This document shows, one piece after another, positions 31,301 to 42,753 of a stretch of DNA of 64,000 nucleotides. The position numbers were made by a program, and so were the translations under genes. This DNA is from a virus: IMG/VR virus record IMGVR_UViG_3300025151_003852, positions 32,001 through 96,000 of that record; one strand, given 5' to 3'. Every line of letters begins with the position of its first letter. The stretch's first letter is position 1. The notes under the pieces are model-generated. The model did no database searches and had not been told where the DNA came from. It saw only the letters and a list, made by a program, of their open reading frames with translations.

Positions 31301-32449
31301 ATTTTGCAATGCAAAAAGATTGTAATCTTCTCCTACCCTTTGTTTAAATTGTTTGTCTGCATTTAAGTAGGTATCCTCTGATGAATTTATGTTTACGTTT
31401 TTTCCACTGATGTTGACTGTTTCATCTGCATGTAAATTAAGATCACCTTGAGTACGTAAGTTAATAGAGTTTGTACTAAAAACATCTACTGTTCCTTCTT
31501 TACCTAATTCAATATATGATTGTCCATTTGCATGTAGGATAGATAACATTTGTCCGTCATCACTCATCGTTATCTGATGTCCTAATGCTGTACGTAATCT
31601 AATTAACTGGTCTCTACCAATGATGTCTCCATCATCCATAACAAGTGAGTGGCCACCTCGTCTTGTTACTACTCTAAAGTCTTCAGCATCATCTCCTAAT
31701 TTACCTGCAATGTCTTCATCTGTTGCACCACCCATATAAACAGGACGTCCCGGAGTACTAACACCCCAGCCTACTCTACTAGATGCTTCTCTTGTTGCAC
31801 TTGAGCCTATAGGACCTCTATATTTGTCTCTGAGAACACCTTGTTGTTGCATGATAGATGCAGTATAACTATGAACTGGTTTTGCATCTCTTAAATAATT
31901 AACACTATCAGCAATATCTTTGTTATTTGTATTAATATTAGTAGTTGGTAATCTTGCGGCGCCGCCATAGGATGCCGCTTCTGCTCCATTAAGAGTTACA
32001 TTTTCAGATGCACCTATTGCAGGTATCATTGACAATGTTTCTGGTTTAGGAATTGAACCTATATAAAAACCATAATTAGGATCACCATTAACAAATATAC
32101 AAATAACTTGTGTTTCTTTATCCGGGGGTGCGTTCCATTGTCCATATGAACTAGGGTTTAAAGTATATGCTCCGTACTGACCGCCACCTTGATCATCTGG
32201 GCCGTCAGGGCCTAACGGTGCTGTTTGTCCAGCAAATGTTGAAAGTCTGCCAACCCATAACCAATTATTACGATTGTATGCATCTTTGTTAAGATTCTCT
32301 GACGGATAGACTGCAATACGACCTTGGTGAGTAGGATCGACTGTACTCATTACTGTACAGATAATAGGTACTTCGATGACAGAGGCTACACCCGCGCCAG
32401 GTTGACTCTTTTTTAATTTACCTCTGGGTTTAAAAACGTCAATAGCCAT
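28397..32449 (-). CDS. gp5/VgrG-like baseplate hub-spike protein with long Ala/Gly-rich extension
   Basis: OB-fold-type N-terminus ('DPTHQGRIAVY', 'PPDKETQVICIFVNGD') and beta-helix spike repeats ('GGHSLVMDDG', 'RTALGHQITMSD', 'SYIELGKEGTVDVFS'). Confidence 0.7.
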   Translation of the reverse strand: MAIDVFKPRGKLKKSQPGAGVASVIEVPIICTVMSTVDPTHQGRIAVYPSENLNKDAYNRNNWLWVGRLSTFAGQTAPLGPDGPDDQGGGQYGAYTLNPSSYGQWNAPPDKETQVICIFVNGDPNYGFYIGSIPKPETLSMIPAIGASENVTLNGAEAASYGGAARLPTTNINTNNKDIADSVNYLRDAKPVHSYTASIMQQQGVLRDKYRGPIGSSATREASSRVGWGVSTPGRPVYMGGATDEDIAGKLGDDAEDFRVVTRRGGHSLVMDDGDIIGRDQLIRLRTALGHQITMSDDGQMLSILHANGQSYIELGKEGTVDVFSTNSINLRTQGDLNLHADETVNISGKNVNINSSEDTYLNADKQFKQRVGEDYNLFALQNLKFKADAAVALEAVGQVGIKSDSEIYNEGTKIHLNDGAASLSPDVVEPIEVIMHPDTLFDDNKGWAAALAKLPSITSRAPAHMPWMNANQGADVQVDPTAEGSLPAEPTETIAGLNSDLAGDLGGAVQLANPSIAASINEVGGISDALDKNATAQMLGSIAQDTGTDFGVGIGVSGNEVQAAITDVVNDVTGTASTAVVGVFGQTPSQMAQGGVLKPGADTMVNTLIGLNAGGIGSKTEQALGVAENNVGWINPDKLASVMPAQAFSGQSGINSLEQFTGASAAQAKSGAQVLQKGQKVLQKLGVVSGKESQGGIGALVQGTMTTKADKGDLFENAKDVSSIVNKYAVEGSDINPVGGQTSVLSKMKSGSGAMLASALSGATGGIVSALDTLNQSGLDLPGVGADLNIGASASSFKSIVNSFPVLPADVPVDLAATAGAAAAAVAGASAGMTGLDIPSTSSISTGLADAVGAGAIDAFSGAAVSQSGAVAALVSSGDPTAVAAINDAVNATNAIGVNPETLTQQGTLSAAATQVQAGLQSKIAGTVASGVSQLPGGQKLAGSVVNNAVGAVNPIADGIDNVTGALQTLGQQAFSGVDAGNLAYTGESALGEISKSFNSMTDQLIGATSGPLSNALSPGASAALQSALSSLTAGGGSTIKLPVVAVNTYDRSKITNLIDGVLGDPIVPRPNLLGEIPQGAITAATALLQVKKELSNDIQTLSVLSKGIAQKQKALFEAQTKFPAGSPEIAAAEAAYEAAASSPTYTNLVNKIKAAETLFDNITVEETIQPETNPFSDIENTLQNYADAGLTGDSFADPFGANGDGTLAGTPPSYESNFNYFTDTISAGFIPVDKSQYTDTTYSNILATIAKTYVGTEWTAYLTEPYTTDYTPIITGTEWVPDNTVESVVGDDLGDGPLTSDNTDGAGGVGQDVAIGGTININENFISSGVVGGGVLKWVFDGDTWKLK

Positions 32450-37808: not shown

Positions 37809-39571
37809 TCAATTTAAAACATGTAACTCTCAGAAACTTTTTAAGTGTAGGATCAGTTACACAAGCAATTGACTTGCAAAATGAGGAACTAACCCTCATC
37901 TTAGGTGATAACTTAGATTTAGGTGGAGACGGTGCTAGAAATGGTACTGGTAAGACTACTATTATACAAGCAATCAGTTATGCATTGTATGGTGTTCCAC
38001 TTAACAATATCAAACAAAACAATTTAATCAATAGAACTAACGGCAAAGGCATGATGGTGACATTAGACTTTGAAGCCAATGGCGTTGAGTATCGTATTGA
38101 ACGTGGACGTAAGCCTCATGGCATGAAGTTCTTTATCAACGGTGTAGATGAAGAAGACAACGAAGCACAGGGCGAAAATAAAGAGACACAACAAGTTATC
38201 GAAGACATCGTAGGCATGTCTTCAGTGATGTTTAGAAACATCGTTGCACTTAATACATACAGTCAACCATTCTTAAGCATGACACAGGGACAACAACGTG
38301 ATATCATCGAACAGTTGTTGGGTATAACTCTGTTATCAGAAAAAGCAGAGAAGATTAAAATCATTATAAAAAATAACAAAGAAGAAATTCAACAAGAAGA
38401 ATTTAAAGTCCAAGCAATAGAAGAAGCAAACAAAAGAATTGAAGAACAAATAGATAGTCTTAGAAAGAGAGAAAGACTATGGACAGCAAAGACTAATGAA
38501 GATATTGGCACGTTAAAAGATAAGATTGAAACACTAGAAAAAGTGGATATCGATGCCGAATTACTTGGACATAAACAACTTGCTGTCTATAATGCTTTAG
38601 TTAAGGATCATGCAGATATCGACAAATTAATGTTAAGAACTCAAAACGATATTGATAGAGAAACTAAGTCAATAACCAAGTTTGAAAAAGAATTAGATAT
38701 ACTAAAACAAAATAAATGTCACACATGTGGACAAGATATATGCGATGATACGCATATTAGAATCATGGGAGACAAAGAAGAAAGTTTATCAGAGGCTACT
38801 AAACATGCCGAAGAACTAGCAGAAGTTTATGTAGAATTAGAAAAAGAGAAACATTCATTGTTTGAGATAGGAGAGAAACCAGAGACTTATTATAGTTCTG
38901 AAGAAGAGGCTATCGAACATAAGAATAAAATCAAAGACTTGTCAGCACAAGTTAAACGCAAAGAGCAAGAAGAAAATCCATACACAGATCAAATATCTGA
39001 AATGGAGTCTAGTGCATTACAAGAAGCAAACTTTGATAAAGTAAACGAATTATCACGTATAGGAGATCATCAGAAGTTCTTGTTAGACCTATTAACAAGC
39101 AAAGATTCATTTGTACGTAAAAAGATTATTGATCAAAACTTATCTTACTTAAATTCACGTTTAACAAACTACTTAGACAAGATGGGTCTACCTCATCAAG
39201 TAGTATTCCAAAATGATTTGTCTGTAGAAATTACAGAATTGGGCAGAGAGTTAGACTTTGACAATTTAAGTAGAGGAGAACGTAACAGATTAATCTTAGG
39301 ATTATCATTTGCGTTCAGAGATGTTTGGGAGAACTTGTACTTCCCAATCAATACATTGTTTATTGACGAGTTGATTGACTCAGGACTTGACACTATAGGT
39401 GTTGAGAATGCTATGGCTATTCTTAAAGACATGACACGTAGACGTAACAAATCTGTTTGGTTAGTGTCACACAGAGAAGAATTAGCAGGCAGAGTTGCTA
39501 GTGTGTTACAAGTTATTAAAGAGAACGGATTCACTACATACAATTCGACTAGGGAGTTGGAGCAGTTGTGA
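37805..39571 (+). CDS. gp46: Recombination ATPase subunit (Rad50/SbcC-like)
   Basis: Walker A 'NGTGKTT', coiled coil with zinc hook 'CHTCGQ', signature 'LSRGE', Walker B 'LFIDE', H-loop 'VSH'. Confidence 0.9.
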   Translation: MINLKHVTLRNFLSVGSVTQAIDLQNEELTLILGDNLDLGGDGARNGTGKTTIIQAISYALYGVPLNNIKQNNLINRTNGKGMMVTLDFEANGVEYRIERGRKPHGMKFFINGVDEEDNEAQGENKETQQVIEDIVGMSSVMFRNIVALNTYSQPFLSMTQGQQRDIIEQLLGITLLSEKAEKIKIIIKNNKEEIQQEEFKVQAIEEANKRIEEQIDSLRKRERLWTAKTNEDIGTLKDKIETLEKVDIDAELLGHKQLAVYNALVKDHADIDKLMLRTQNDIDRETKSITKFEKELDILKQNKCHTCGQDICDDTHIRIMGDKEESLSEATKHAEELAEVYVELEKEKHSLFEIGEKPETYYSSEEEAIEHKNKIKDLSAQVKRKEQEENPYTDQISEMESSALQEANFDKVNELSRIGDHQKFLLDLLTSKDSFVRKKIIDQNLSYLNSRLTNYLDKMGLPHQVVFQNDLSVEITELGRELDFDNLSRGERNRLILGLSFAFRDVWENLYFPINTLFIDELIDSGLDTIGVENAMAILKDMTRRRNKSVWLVSHREELAGRVASVLQVIKENGFTTYNSTRELEQL

Positions 39572-40584
39572 GTCTAGCCTTGTGGCACTGGCATATTGAA
39601 GTAAGCAGTAAGTGTACTTTAAAGTGCCCACGATGTCCTAGACAAGAAGTTCCTGATACATTAGTCAGTACTGAACTCAAACTAGATTTTTTTAAACAAA
39701 ACTTCCCTGCGTTCTTTATATTAGAACACGTAGAGAAACTAACGTTCTGTGGTGACGATGGCGATCCTATCTATGCACATGACTTCTTAGAAGTCATCCA
39801 GTATTTCAAATCAATTAAGCCTAGTATAGCAATCATTATCGTCACTAACGGATCATATAAAAATGAAGACTGGTGGGCAAGACTAGCAGAAATGCTTGAT
39901 GAGCAAGATCAGATTCACTTCAGTATCGACGGCTGGGACCATGAGAGTAATAATCTCTATCGAATCAATTCTAATTGGTCTAGTATCATTACAGGCGTCT
40001 CTATCATCAATGATAAGTCTAATTGTTATACCGTATGGGACGCAATAGGCTTTAAGTTTAACGAAGATAAGATTGGCGACATGCAGAATTATGCTAGAGA
40101 CTTAGGTTTTGATGCATTTCAATTAACACGTAGCACTAAGTTCGGTAAGATATACGAAGATTCTTATGGGAAAGAAGATGCTTTACAACCACGTGATGAT
40201 CTGTTATCATCTAGTCATAGATTTGAAAGAGAAGTCTTTAAGTTTACAGATAAAACAATTAAAGAACCTTGGATGAAGACAAACATTAAGTTGTATGATG
40301 AATCTAAGTTAGTAGGAAATGAACGACCTCTATGTCATATCGGCAATAAAGGTAGTTACATTAATGCTAGGGGCGAATTTTACCCCTGTTGTTGGGTTGC
40401 TACAAGATATGGACACAACAATAAATGGAATGAAATTGGCAAGAAATATAATCTACATGAATTGAGGTTACCCAAAATTGTAAAAGATAAATTCTGGGAA
40501 GCCGACTTTATACATGACTCTTACGAGTGCCAAACAAAATGTGCCCATCATAGGGTAGATAAAAATTATGCCACCGAGTGGTAA
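39568..40584 (+). CDS. Radical SAM protein with C-terminal SPASM/twitch-like Cys cluster
   Basis: CxxxCxxC (CTLKCPRC), 'CGDDGDP', 'TNGS', 'FSIDG', C-terminal 'C...YINARGEFYPCCW...CQTKC'. Confidence 0.85.
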   Translation: MSLALWHWHIEVSSKCTLKCPRCPRQEVPDTLVSTELKLDFFKQNFPAFFILEHVEKLTFCGDDGDPIYAHDFLEVIQYFKSIKPSIAIIIVTNGSYKNEDWWARLAEMLDEQDQIHFSIDGWDHESNNLYRINSNWSSIITGVSIINDKSNCYTVWDAIGFKFNEDKIGDMQNYARDLGFDAFQLTRSTKFGKIYEDSYGKEDALQPRDDLLSSSHRFEREVFKFTDKTIKEPWMKTNIKLYDESKLVGNERPLCHIGNKGSYINARGEFYPCCWVATRYGHNNKWNEIGKKYNLHELRLPKIVKDKFWEADFIHDSYECQTKCAHHRVDKNYATEW

Positions 40585-40601: not shown

Positions 40602-41189
40602 ATGCCATCACCATCTAAGAACAAAGGATCAGGATTTGAACGAGAAGTTGCAAAATTTCTCAGTGAGACTTATGAAGAAAGTTTCATACGTGCTCCTGGC
40701 TCTGGTGCTTATGTAGGTGGCAAAAATCAAAATCGTACAGAGATTTTGCATGAAGGACAAATCAGAAGTTTCAAAGGCGACATTGTTCCCGGAGAAAGTT
40801 TTCACAAGTTAAATGTAGAATGTAAGTTCTACGCAGATTTCCCTTTTCATCAACTTCTTTCTGGTTCATGCAGACAACTAGAAGAATGGCTCGACCAATT
40901 AATGGACGTGCATGATGAAGGGGATTTTGACGTTCTCTTTATGAAGTTTAATCGTAAAGGACGTTTTGTATGTGTACCAAGTAAATACACATTCGTAAGT
41001 GATCAATTCATATATTACACATCAGACAATCATGGTGACTGGGTAATATTTGGATGGGATCACTTTTTTAAATTCAATAAAGATATATTCAAAGCATACG
41101 CAGGCGACACAGAGACCAACTCAGAACCCACCGATGACACCAAGTCAGAACTAAAACTAAACACAACAACAACTACAGTAGACTTTTAA
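40602..41189 (+). CDS. Holliday junction resolvase (Hjc-like PD-(D/E)xK nuclease)
   Basis: 'SKNKGSGFEREVA', 'R.PGSGA', 'GDI', 'VECK'; AGGAG SD upstream. Confidence 0.75.
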   Translation: MPSPSKNKGSGFEREVAKFLSETYEESFIRAPGSGAYVGGKNQNRTEILHEGQIRSFKGDIVPGESFHKLNVECKFYADFPFHQLLSGSCRQLEEWLDQLMDVHDEGDFDVLFMKFNRKGRFVCVPSKYTFVSDQFIYYTSDNHGDWVIFGWDHFFKFNKDIFKAYAGDTETNSEPTDDTKSELKLNTTTTTVDF

Positions 41190-41194
41190 AATTT

Positions 41195-41545
41195 AGTATG
41201 GTCGTAATTTGTACTCGACCCTCCTCGAGGATGCAGTAACCCTGCTGACGGATTTGGAGTAGTGTGTTATACACAATAAACCGACAGGGCAATTGTTATG
41301 GTAGCAAACCCTGAATGAGTTCATATCTACTTTGATTTGATGATATGAAACATGCGTTGCTGAGAGGTCATGCTCATTAGTATGATTGGCTCAACTACAG
41401 CCCAGTAAACATTACAGAGCAACCGGTTGCAATTGATTATAGTAACGTAATCGATTGGGGATAATCAACATGGATGACAGGCGGTAAAGAGGCTTGAATT
41501 TTTCGTGGTAGTGCTGAGTAGCACTACCATGGCTTCAAAACGGTA
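41195..41545 (+). ncRNA. Candidate structured non-coding RNA (family unidentified)
   Basis: No credible ORF. Hand folding gives a continuous series of stems, several needing G-U pairs on the + strand (see findings). Confidence 0.45.
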
Positions 41546-41600
41546 ATAAGACTTTAAACAATAACCATTAAGAACTTTTACTTTATCCTTTTAAATAAGA

Positions 41601-41650
41601 AATTACGAATGAACGAAGTGAATGAGTAATTGGGTCTTCTTTGAAGACCC
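41601..41650. other. Twin hairpins at the convergence point: tandem-GA hairpin plus GGGTCTTC-TTT-GAAGACCC (possible terminator)
   Basis: AATTAC-GA-AT-GA-AC-GAA-GT-GA-AT-GA-GTAATT at 41601-31 and a perfect 8-bp stem at 41632-50, between convergent transcription units. Confidence 0.55.
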
Positions 41651-41668
41651 TTAAGAATGCTCTAGTGT

Positions 41669-41899
41669 TTAGAAGAATGGCATTTGAGTTTTCTTAGTAG
41701 TTTCTAAGTGTTCCTCAATTAATTTGTTTATGGCTTTACGTTCTGATAGGGACATGTTAAGGACATCTTCATATGAGGCACCACCACGCATGTACCAAGC
41801 CAAAGTCAAGGCGTTTGACTTTAAGCCCTGAGTGTATTCTTCATATTTTTGTATTAACTCCCTTATCCCTTCAGGGTCGAGTGAAAGGAGTCTTAGACG
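41669..41899 (-). CDS. gp51-like baseplate hub/tail assembly ORF, probably expressed as the -1 frameshift extension of the upstream gene
   Basis: 76-codon frame RLRLLSLDPEGIRELIQKYEEYTQGLKSNALTLAWYMRGGASYEDVLNMSLSERKAINKLIEEHLETTKKTQMPFF. First ATG only at 41791. Absent from the ORF track. Confidence 0.7.
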   Translation of the reverse strand, partial: RLRLLSLDPEGIRELIQKYEEYTQGLKSNALTLAWYMRGGASYEDVLNMSLSERKAINKLIEEHLETTKKTQMPFF

Positions 41900-42753
41900 A
41901 AAAAATCCGATGCGTTCAATGTGAATGGTTGCTTGTACTCATGTCCACATTCTTCTTTTTCTGGATCATCTGAACCTGCGGTGCATACAATAGTTAGAGG
42001 CTTAATTGTTGATTTCTCTCTAAGTTGCGTGTTGTGATCTCTTATAGTTTCATAAGTTTTCGTGTCAGCATTCTTTAGAAAGTCATGTATATGATCTGTA
42101 TCAGTAACTTCTCCTTCAGGAGTAACAATTTTTACGATTGTTTGAGATAAGATTTCCATTGTGAGTACTGTAATATCTTTCAATGCTTCAGCACTTACTA
42201 AGGTACGTTCTTGTTGATCTTCAATAGCAGATAAGTTTTTGTATTTTGCTTGAATTTCAAACTGTTTTAGACCTGCTTCATTCATTTCTTTGTACTTTAA
42301 GGGCGCAAAATAAATTTCTAACTCATTCATTCTTAAAGGAGTTTCATAATCTCCTGCCCCCAATGATCTTAGTAGAACTTGTAGATTAATACCATATGTA
42401 CCTTCTTCACCGCATTTCTCACATTTAGACTCAACATCAATAGTTTCTTGCCCACCTGCGGCTTTGATAGAGATTAATACTGTATCTAAATCAGTACTTA
42501 ATAATGCCCAAGGATTCTTAATTGCTGGTACACAACTTTTAATAATCTCTACCATGGCTGTACCATTAAACAAAGCATCTGGAGTCTTTGTCGTTATTTC
42601 ATCGATTGCTGTCATAGGATAGACAGGTAATTCTTTGTTCTCAGGCCATTCGATGTCTTCAGGTGCGTAACTTTCCCCACCTGACGGTAAAGAGATATGT
42701 ACAGCGGGTCTACGAAAAAACTGTCGTAGCGGATTATTTTCATTAATTGTCAT
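41893..42753 (-). CDS. Baseplate hub assembly / tail assembly chaperone, gp26-like
   Basis: 'NPL..FFRRP...I.LPS.G', 'PMTAIDE...KTPDALFNG', 'D.D..L..I..A', CxxC (CEKC), C-terminal '...DFFV'. Confidence 0.65.
   Translation of the reverse strand: MTINENNPLRQFFRRPAVHISLPSGGESYAPEDIEWPENKELPVYPMTAIDEITTKTPDALFNGTAMVEIIKSCVPAIKNPWALLSTDLDTVLISIKAAGGQETIDVESKCEKCGEEGTYGINLQVLLRSLGAGDYETPLRMNELEIYFAPLKYKEMNEAGLKQFEIQAKYKNLSAIEDQQERTLVSAEALKDITVLTMEILSQTIVKIVTPEGEVTDTDHIHDFLKNADTKTYETIRDHNTQLREKSTIKPLTIVCTAGSDDPEKEECGHEYKQPFTLNASDFFV

Follow-up and report, generated by a model that had tools for sequence, protein, structure and literature searches.

A conserved gap between converging genes

We examined a 64,000-nucleotide (nt) stretch of viral DNA (positions 32,001 to 96,000 of IMG/VR record IMGVR_UViG_3300025151_003852; hereafter the window) and, within it, the 479-nt gap at 41190-41668 where the genes of a resolvase-like nuclease and a baseplate-hub chaperone converge. 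All coordinates are those of the 64-kb window, and the RNA described here is on the + strand. The + strand nuclease gene has its stop at 41189, and the converging - strand coding sequence terminates at 41669. From the letters of this one sequence, an initial annotation had noted a large non-coding gap behind a Holliday junction resolvase gene and had proposed an ornate RNA of about 350 nt. The gap is borne out: under a crude mask of open reading frames (ORFs) it is the window's longest ORF-free stretch, the ORF list places merely scattered ORFs of 31-43 amino acids (aa) in it, and its G+C content (0.42-0.43) is mildly elevated over the ~0.33-0.39 found nearby. We conclude, with a probability of roughly 0.88, that positions 41200-41548 (+) are a real, structured, + strand non-coding RNA gene of a new, uncatalogued family; the RNA probably extends to ~41650. 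The window comes from a viral record of 128 kb, 37% complete according to CheckV, and its source is therefore a jumbo phage. The RNA element is present once in that record.

A search of IMG/VR with the nuclease protein returned 236 relatives, and the best 80 of these 236 were taken as protein-anchored loci. The order of nuclease gene (+), a gap of 424-556 nt and - strand hub genes recurs in 77 of them, contig ends interrupting the remaining three, and the nuclease gene lies upstream of the RNA in 79. The gap DNA still aligns at a nuclease identity of just 64-70%. A covariance model built on the multi-helix core only (R1; 41279-41428, 152 positions) gives the window 146 bits and matches 79 of the 80 loci, 77 at full length with 119-160 bits and two that are cut by contig ends. 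At the sole locus without an R1 match (L017), the contig stops before the RNA. Independently, we scanned viral contigs with the motif of a single hairpin, H13, which occurs once in the window, and obtained at least 118 viral loci, with the same gene context wherever their flanks permit, save one (L146). When 80 of these motif loci were examined with 1.5-kb flanks, the nuclease gene was upstream in 72, seven ended before it and one, again L146, differed; the hub-gene extension was downstream in 78. In L146, a gene for a SegE-type GIY-YIG endonuclease (588-1031, +; PF19835, E 9e-36) replaces the nuclease gene and the RNA is kept intact, which argues that the RNA is more than the nuclease gene's tail.

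A blastn search of the locus against 50,697 phage records matched solely a baseplate-hub piece of a Pseudomonas phage. R1 found no homologue in five whole cultured jumbo phages (Phosso, Atu_ph07, SCTP-2, PA5oct and Xoo-sp13), each of which has the nuclease or the hub extension in common with the window. Its best match among them, 17.5 bits inside a phosphoesterase gene, was rejected as comparable to a chance hit of 16.1 bits in a coding region of the window, and in SCTP-2 and PA5oct no gap follows the nuclease gene. Scanning representative cellular genomes with the H13 motif found no copy of the RNA; the 16 cellular loci that carry the motif are chance matches, at which an nhmmer profile aligns the hairpin alone. 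In full-text literature searches we found no paper that describes the RNA. The carriers of the family form a clade of uncultured, T4-related jumbo phages, and these searches show the family to be phage-specific, single-copy and always in the gap where the nuclease and hub chaperone genes converge.

Covariation and a pseudoknotted core

Folded as a single sequence, the + strand has a minimum free energy (MFE) of -104.3 kcal/mol and a z-score of -2.4, and the - strand has a z-score of -2.8. The + strand thus folds modestly better than shuffled sequence, and no better than the - strand. Single-sequence folding is indecisive, and comparative data were therefore needed.

We used an alignment of 58 unique gaps (A1) and an alignment of 48 sequences less than 86% identical (A2), the latter to score 53 pairs in 11 fixed-length helices, pseudoknots included. 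RNAalifold gives 48 pairs for A1, with compensatory changes in 24. In A2, standard pairs occupy 98.9% of 2,529 cells, compared with 87.9% in shuffles; both sides have changed in 35 of the 53 pairs (19.8 in shuffles), and the covariation score is 0.379 (0.160 in shuffles). None of 500 shuffles attains any of these observed values. When the 3′ partners are slid by 1-3 columns, pairing drops to 27-42% and the score to 0.05-0.08. The proposed ornate structure of ~350 nt is accordingly supported by covariation on 48 diverse homologues, under both the shuffle and the slid-partner controls.

A scan of all column pairs for Watson-Crick covariation, run free of any structural model on a 102-sequence alignment (mafft L-INS-i), returned three long-range stacks that cross the nested helices: PKa, PK1 and PK2 (Table 1). 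All 10 pseudoknot pairs have changed on both sides in A2, where the PKa and PK2 cells are 98-100% paired; PK1 appears in A1 as CCU/AGG, GCC/GGC, CCUC/GAGG and CUCC/GGAG. The H7 loop is thereby tied to the junction that follows H9 and to the strand behind H11; consequently, the three pseudoknots are shown to join these elements into one compact core. The conserved helices number about 13, three of them pseudoknots, and dozens of invariant unpaired nucleotides are concentrated mostly around the pseudoknot core. The full model for the window contains 102 nested and 10 pseudoknot pairs. The column-pair scan found no co-varying stack for a helix joining the 5′ and 3′ ends, or for a partner of the conserved tail.

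Of the nine stems that had been listed by hand, eight persist throughout the family. Compensatory changes maintain CAGGG/CCCTG with its inner stem, TTCATATC/GATATGAA and GTTGCT/AGCAAC, and a hairpin occupies the same site despite differing sequence for GGTCG/CGACC, GCAG/CTGC, GTGTG/TACAC, GGTCATGCT/AGTATGATT and CAATTGATTA/TAATCGATTG. Within the 12-bp stem at 41504-41531, a core of 8 bp is invariant but for changes to G-U pairs. The GTAA/TTAC stem is unsupported: the stretch is a conserved unpaired junction, and its CCC forms a pseudoknot. Two perfect palindromes that had been pointed out (41222-31 and 41419-30) are present and both incidental, TCCTCGAGGA being restricted to the window's close relatives, with CCTCCTTGAG in the remaining A1 sequences, and GCAACCGGTTGC consisting of the 3′ strands of two helices.

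Strand and expression

The 63 pairs scored across 102 sequences comprise 6,194 Watson-Crick, 129 G-U and 28 A-C cells. Without the hairpin H15 the counts are 116 G-U against 14 A-C, and in H15 alone they are 13 against 14. The + strand folds better in 85 of the 102 sequences. The excess of G-U over A-C, together with the better folding of the + strand, indicates that the core is read from the + strand; the wobble argument for this strand, first made on one sequence, holds family-wide. H15 looks strand-neutral, like a terminator between converging units.

This asymmetry bears on whether the conservation acts on DNA, as a replication origin or a site of single-strand initiation, recombination or packaging that occupies either the whole gap or H14 and H15 only. 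Such an element would suit a locus between recombination genes and the baseplate hub module, as well as the C-GAA-G loops and tandem G-A mismatches in H14 and H15, the unbiased wobbles of H15 and the invariant inverted repeat that is H13. However, the core has three long-range pseudoknots and GNRA loops, and its wobble bias holds in helices up to 150 nt apart; the H13 loop of 4-8 nt is unlike the operator of a dimeric protein; and the region appears in RNA libraries, deeper than its flanks. We consider a DNA-level element very unlikely overall. The replication or recombination locus that had been offered as an alternative is thus improbable for the core and possible for the two small 3′ hairpins.

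Ten RNA-library runs contain parts of the locus; the four that we examined all consist of assembled contigs without strand or transcript ends. One marine metatranscriptome (X1) contains a contig of 342 nt that matches 41117-41458 exactly, at a word depth of 28.7, and the flanking contigs have word depths of 10.8 (nuclease gene) and 12.4 (hub gene). The X1 contigs leave 41459-41660 uncovered, and two other runs (X10 and X12) cover the nuclease gene only; contig gaps are uninformative. In a fourth run (X9), one contig joins the nuclease gene to the 5′ portion of the RNA of a relative. The X1 depth and the X9 junction contig hint at expression and at read-through from the nuclease gene, with the proviso that RNA libraries may contain DNA. 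Co-transcription with the recombination genes, as first proposed, may occur.

Read-through would also be expected of a cis-acting 3′ untranslated region of the nuclease and recombination operon, one that stabilises or processes the mRNA or stops convergent transcription, with no separate RNA. The first hairpin begins 10 nt past the nuclease stop codon in the window, a promoter scan found none, contigs from two metatranscriptome runs span the junction between the nuclease gene and the RNA, and H14 and H15 are located where converging units must terminate. Nevertheless, an element of ~350 nt that has three pseudoknots with covariation, and dozens of unpaired bases that never vary, goes far beyond what mRNA protection or termination needs, L146 keeps the RNA beside a different endonuclease gene, and in X1 the word depth over the RNA is greater than that of the neighbouring contigs by a factor of 2.3-2.7. 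A 3′ untranslated region is, in our judgement, an unlikely explanation of the whole.

Two promoter candidates were rejected. The sequence TATAAATA, which we take to be the T4 late-promoter word, is not enriched (5 found, 7.8 expected). The sequence ATTTAGTAT, also present upstream of the 42861 gene, has four exact copies, two of them inside ORFs, and a one-mismatch count at chance level.

Anatomy of the RNA

The features of the RNA and its flanking genes are collected in Table 1. Six hairpins of variable length (H1, H3, H4, H9, H11 and H12) were assessed by folding each distinct version, rather than by column scores; their mean energies are 2-4 times those of shuffles, except for H3 and H12, the two weakest.

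Table 1. Positions of the RNA, its helices and the adjacent genes in the window
Feature	Position	Strand	Evidence or remark
PD-(D/E)XK resolvase-like nuclease gene, 195 aa, outside the RNA	40602-41189	+	PF24608 PDDEXK_15, E 7e-26; phrog_244
RNA core	41200-41548	+	Conserved; two further conserved hairpins extend to 41650
Short conserved leader AAUUNRGU before the first hairpin	41190-41199	+	A1 and upstream alignment
H1, 5′ hairpin, GGUCG/CGACC in window	41200-41220	+	Mean MFE -7.1 vs -2.8 kcal/mol in shuffles; at least 4 bp in 70/70 distinct versions
H2, CUCC (41221-24)/GGAG (41256-59), enclosing G41229-C41249 and H3	41221-41259	+	100% paired
H3, hairpin inside H2	41233-36 with 41242-45	+	At least 4 bp in 44/51 distinct versions
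H4, variable-length hairpin	41262-41274	+	Mean MFE -9.0 vs -2.3 in shuffles; at least 4 bp in 64/64 distinct versions
Multi-helix core closed by H5, including H6-H9 and junction	41279-41428	+	Covariation, R1
H5	41279-83 with 41424-28	+	Closes core
H6	41285-89/41309-13 and 41293-95/41305-07	+	In core
H7	41315-17/41351-53 and 41320-27/41342-49	+	In core
H7 loop, 5′ strands of PKa and PK2	41330-41336	+	Column-pair scan
PKa	41330-31 with 41399-400	+	Both-side changes in 2/2 pairs
PK2	41332-36 with 41464-68	+	Both-side changes in 5/5 pairs
H8	41356-61/41418-23	+	In core
H9	41362-92	+	At least 4 bp in 76/76 distinct versions
Conserved junction AACUACAG...UUACAG	41393-41417	+	In core, after H9
Junction strand: PKa 3′ strand (41399-400) and PK1 5′ strand CCC (41401-03)	41399-41403	+	
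PK1, CCC/GGG	41401-03 with 41458-60	+	Both-side changes in 3/3 pairs, 97% paired
H11 (41430-39/41448-57), then 3′ strands of PK1 (41458-60) and PK2 (41464-68)	41430-41468	+	H11: at least 4 bp in 69/69 distinct versions
H12, small hairpin, loop mostly with GGCAA	41478-41496	+	Mean MFE -3.5 vs -2.3 in shuffles; weakest helix; at least 4 bp in 65/70 distinct versions
H13 (12 bp in window; 8-bp core GGUAGUGC/GCACUACC) and conserved tail AUGGCUUCAAA.CGG.AAU	41504-41548	+	
Variable A+T-rich linker	41549-41602	+	Poor conservation in A1
H14, tandem G-A mismatches round a 2-bp stem, GAA loop (GAACGAAGUGA)	41603-41629	+	
H15, 8-bp hairpin between converging units	41632-41650	+	7/8 pairs co-vary
-1 frame extension of gp26-like baseplate-hub chaperone gene	41669-41905	-	TTTTTTC run, open frame read directly
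gp26-like baseplate-hub chaperone gene	41893-42753	-	Pfam PF12322

One pair of H2 is altered on both sides in A2, and the pair 41229:41249 that it encloses is G-C, A-U or G-U in 37, 7 and 4 sequences of that alignment, respectively. The conserved CCUCCUU was tried as an anti-Shine-Dalgarno mimic and rejected: it pairs with the internal GGAG, and two sequences change it compensatorily. The loop of H4 is a GNRA tetraloop (GCGA, GCAA, GUAA or GUGA) in 53 of 102 sequences and UUA in the window. Across H5, H6, H7 and H8, 23 of 30 pairs are altered on both sides, with 95.5-100% of cells paired (A2).

At the 3′ side of the core, six of the eight pairs in the H13 core are invariant and two vary to G-U alone (A2); the loop is 4-8 nt long. 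The inner pair of H14 is A-U in 74, G-C in 25 and G-U in 2 of 102 sequences, and the H14 motif is unique in the 128-kb record. H14 could belong to the 3′ end of the RNA, terminate the - strand operon or act as a signal in DNA. From its position between the converging units, H15 is likely a terminator, without the canonical U run: a scan of 40900-41900 returned no terminator-like site, H15 failing for its U tract, and directly after the stem the window has UUAAGAAU and most relatives have CUUUA.

A mini-ORF (41530-41547, +), which in the window would encode MASKR-stop, starts at an AUG (41530) that is invariant and lies on the 3′ side of the H13 stem. Its length ranges from 3 to ~20 codons, of which the first three alone are conserved (A1 and A2), and a conserved AUGGCUUC block coincides with this region. 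The mini-ORF is probably no gene.

A ligand sensor akin to a riboswitch, or a leader that controls this mini-ORF, would account for an aptamer-like multi-helix junction with pseudoknots and for the invariant AUG-GCU-UC after H13, in a reading frame whose arginine is written CGG or AGG in the alignment. It is, however, highly improbable. The gene that comes next runs towards the RNA from the - strand, which leaves no + strand gene downstream to regulate; conservation of the mini-ORF is limited to its first three codons; and its AUG has no Shine-Dalgarno sequence and is half buried in H13.

Neighbouring genes

The PHROG label of the nuclease (phrog_244) is 'RusA-like resolvase'. Its C-terminal tail (41094-41150, and the same place in L001-L160) is variable and carries the motif GAC ACC AAG/ACG TCA, that is D-T-K/T-S, often repeated; the two copies in the window read ETNSE and DTKSE. 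To judge from its codons, it looks like a peptide motif, and the tail is perhaps a docking tail. The corresponding upstream motif GACACC(A/C)AGTCA was rejected as a promoter, as its changes fall mainly on the third base of codons and it stands at no constant distance from H1. Between the genes of an SbcC-like recombination nuclease and the PD-(D/E)XK nuclease lies a gene for a radical SAM protein (338 aa, 39568-40584, +).

On the other side of the gap, the 3′ end of the chaperone gene reads ...GAT TTT TTC GTC TAA, with a slippery TTTTTTC at 41905-41899. A -1 slip at this run opens ~75 codons without a stop down to 41669, including the sequence of a 46-aa ORF; an independent 46-aa gene at 41669-41809 was rejected, its sequence lying inside the -1 frame extension. 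The run and the open -1 frame fit a programmed -1 frameshift that would give short and long forms of the chaperone. At one locus (L147), a 165-aa ORF without a Pfam match (1681-2178, -) is located between the RNA and the hub chaperone gene, and the RNA is undisrupted.

Tests against known families and coding genes

Rfam 15 (4,227 models) gave no matches in the 64-kb window at the gathering threshold. At E up to 10, there was no match inside 41190-41630 and no recurrent match on the RNA at 20 homologous loci; the initial statement that the RNA fits no known family therefore stands. In the window and the 20 homologues, no match was obtained with the Rfam intron models or the RNase P RNA models, both at E up to 10, or with the covariance models of GOLLD, ROOL, OLE, raiA and HEARO. 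ARAGORN found no tRNA or transfer-messenger RNA (tmRNA) genes in the 64-kb window.

We also weighed whether the gap holds a missed protein-coding gene, a self-splicing intron or another mobile ribozyme. Stop-to-stop frames of 47-128 codons do occur in individual sequences, and ORFs of homing-endonuclease type have been inserted beside the RNA in L146 and perhaps L147. Yet the longest frames vary in strand and phase, and no ORF is conserved in both among the 58 unique gaps, whether under the standard code or with TAG, TGA or TAA recoded singly. Substitutions in the helices are compensatory and lack codon periodicity. The flanking exons of a group I or II intron are absent, the element lying between the stop codons of converging genes with no + strand ORF after it, and the order of its helices and pseudoknots departs from what we take to be the group I scheme. 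Since Rfam, searched at E up to 10, matched no intron, ribozyme, RNase P or tmRNA in either the window or 20 homologues, these explanations have only the slightest chance of being right.

Interpretation

Ribozymes, ligand-binding RNAs and ribonucleoprotein scaffolds typically have a pseudoknotted anatomy with many invariant unpaired bases, whereas antisense regulators are conserved in an unpaired seed and leaders require a downstream gene. On the strength of such anatomy, we infer that the RNA would act in trans through its three-dimensional fold, and would be neither an antisense regulator nor an mRNA leader. By analogy, we tentatively rank a protein-binding scaffold or decoy during infection first, at well below even odds. 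A ribozyme, ranked second, would be unlikely, and an RNA-only assembly like the large ornate bacterial RNAs, ranked third, less likely again; what is left falls to the rival explanations weighed above.

Several points weigh against our conclusions. The single-sequence folding energy is weak evidence, with a modest z-score and a + strand that does no better than the - strand. The aligned sequences share ancestry, so that shuffle controls overstate significance, and of the two controls the slid-partner one is the fairer. In H13 there is no covariation; its pairing, which rests on invariance and G-U changes, is plausible, but the element could be a sequence-specific site. The evidence for expression is a hint from assembled contigs, with possible DNA contamination, and simple scans found neither a sigma-70-like promoter nor a canonical terminator. 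Finally, our order of scaffold, ribozyme and assembly is drawn from comparison with other large RNAs that contain pseudoknots.

Only a small number of large RNAs with pseudoknots and high conservation are known, and many of the classic ones are ribozymes, ribonucleoprotein cores or, as recently found, RNA-only assemblies. A bolder proposal, which we hold to be doubtful, is that the RNA is a large natural ribozyme, or an RNA machine that self-assembles, of a new class encoded by marine and aquatic jumbo phages. Its triple-pseudoknot core would then be an active site or an oligomerisation hub, and the phage might use it in replication, recombination or tail assembly, or against host defence. Two invariant palindromes, CCAUGG and ACCGGU, might in principle let the RNA associate with itself.

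By a new family, we mean one outside every described RNA family; single hairpins or fragments may sit in bulk catalogues of viral structured RNAs. More than 100 diverse natural sequences and a well-determined secondary structure make this class ready for biochemistry. The RNA is an additional, strictly conserved gene in uncultured jumbo phages of a widespread group, and its strict conservation hints at an RNA-based step in giant-phage biology that is invisible to protein-centred annotation.

Comparison with known systems

The cultured jumbo phage Phosso, of Sinorhizobium, has the nuclease and the hub-chaperone extension in common with the window and differs in gene orientation. Between its Holliday junction resolvase and RNase HI genes lies an unannotated gap of 1,014 nt (L218 3760-4773; record 229759-230772). 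This gap has a folding z-score of -5.1 over 781 nt against shuffles and a sub-threshold match to EGFOA RNA (RF02955; 29 bits, cutoff 37.7), and it may be another large phage RNA. The nhmmer profile and R1 of the present family find nothing in the Phosso gap, and EGFOA has no match in the window at E up to 10; EGFOA and the Phosso gap are at most analogues of our RNA, with no homology detected.

The phi29 prohead RNA and the T4 stable species 1 and 2 RNAs are stand-alone structured phage RNAs that work in trans or are presumed to. They are much smaller (~120-175 nt) and come from unrelated phage groups, and they have no Rfam match in the window. The phi29 prohead RNA is a structural part of a virion assembly machine. 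With baseplate genes beside the present RNA, it is a possible model, and the functional parallel is speculative.

Fremin, Bhatt and Kyrpides (2023) used CMfinder and R-scape on intergenic regions of IMG/VR, the collection that also contains our family, and reported viral structured RNAs that they term csRNAs (PMC10690425). Their candidates span 29-151 nt and average 67 nt, and the running text of that paper, as distinct from its alignments, describes no 350-nt pseudoknotted RNA and omits the locus (PMC10690425). Single hairpins of our RNA may be among the 8,495 candidates from DNA viruses in that work.

The closest likeness in kind is to GOLLD and ROOL, and also to OLE and raiA: RNAs of several hundred nt, multi-domain and rich in pseudoknots, which were likewise found by comparative genomics, are often borne by phages or prophages and have no assigned biochemical function. 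GOLLD, ROOL and OLE are reported to form RNA-only homo-oligomers (PMC12286853). Our RNA differs from these four in being smaller, with a core of ~350 nt that none of their Rfam models matches in the window or the 20 homologues, in lying away from tRNA genes, and in being restricted to one jumbo-phage clade, where it occupies a fixed syntenic site.

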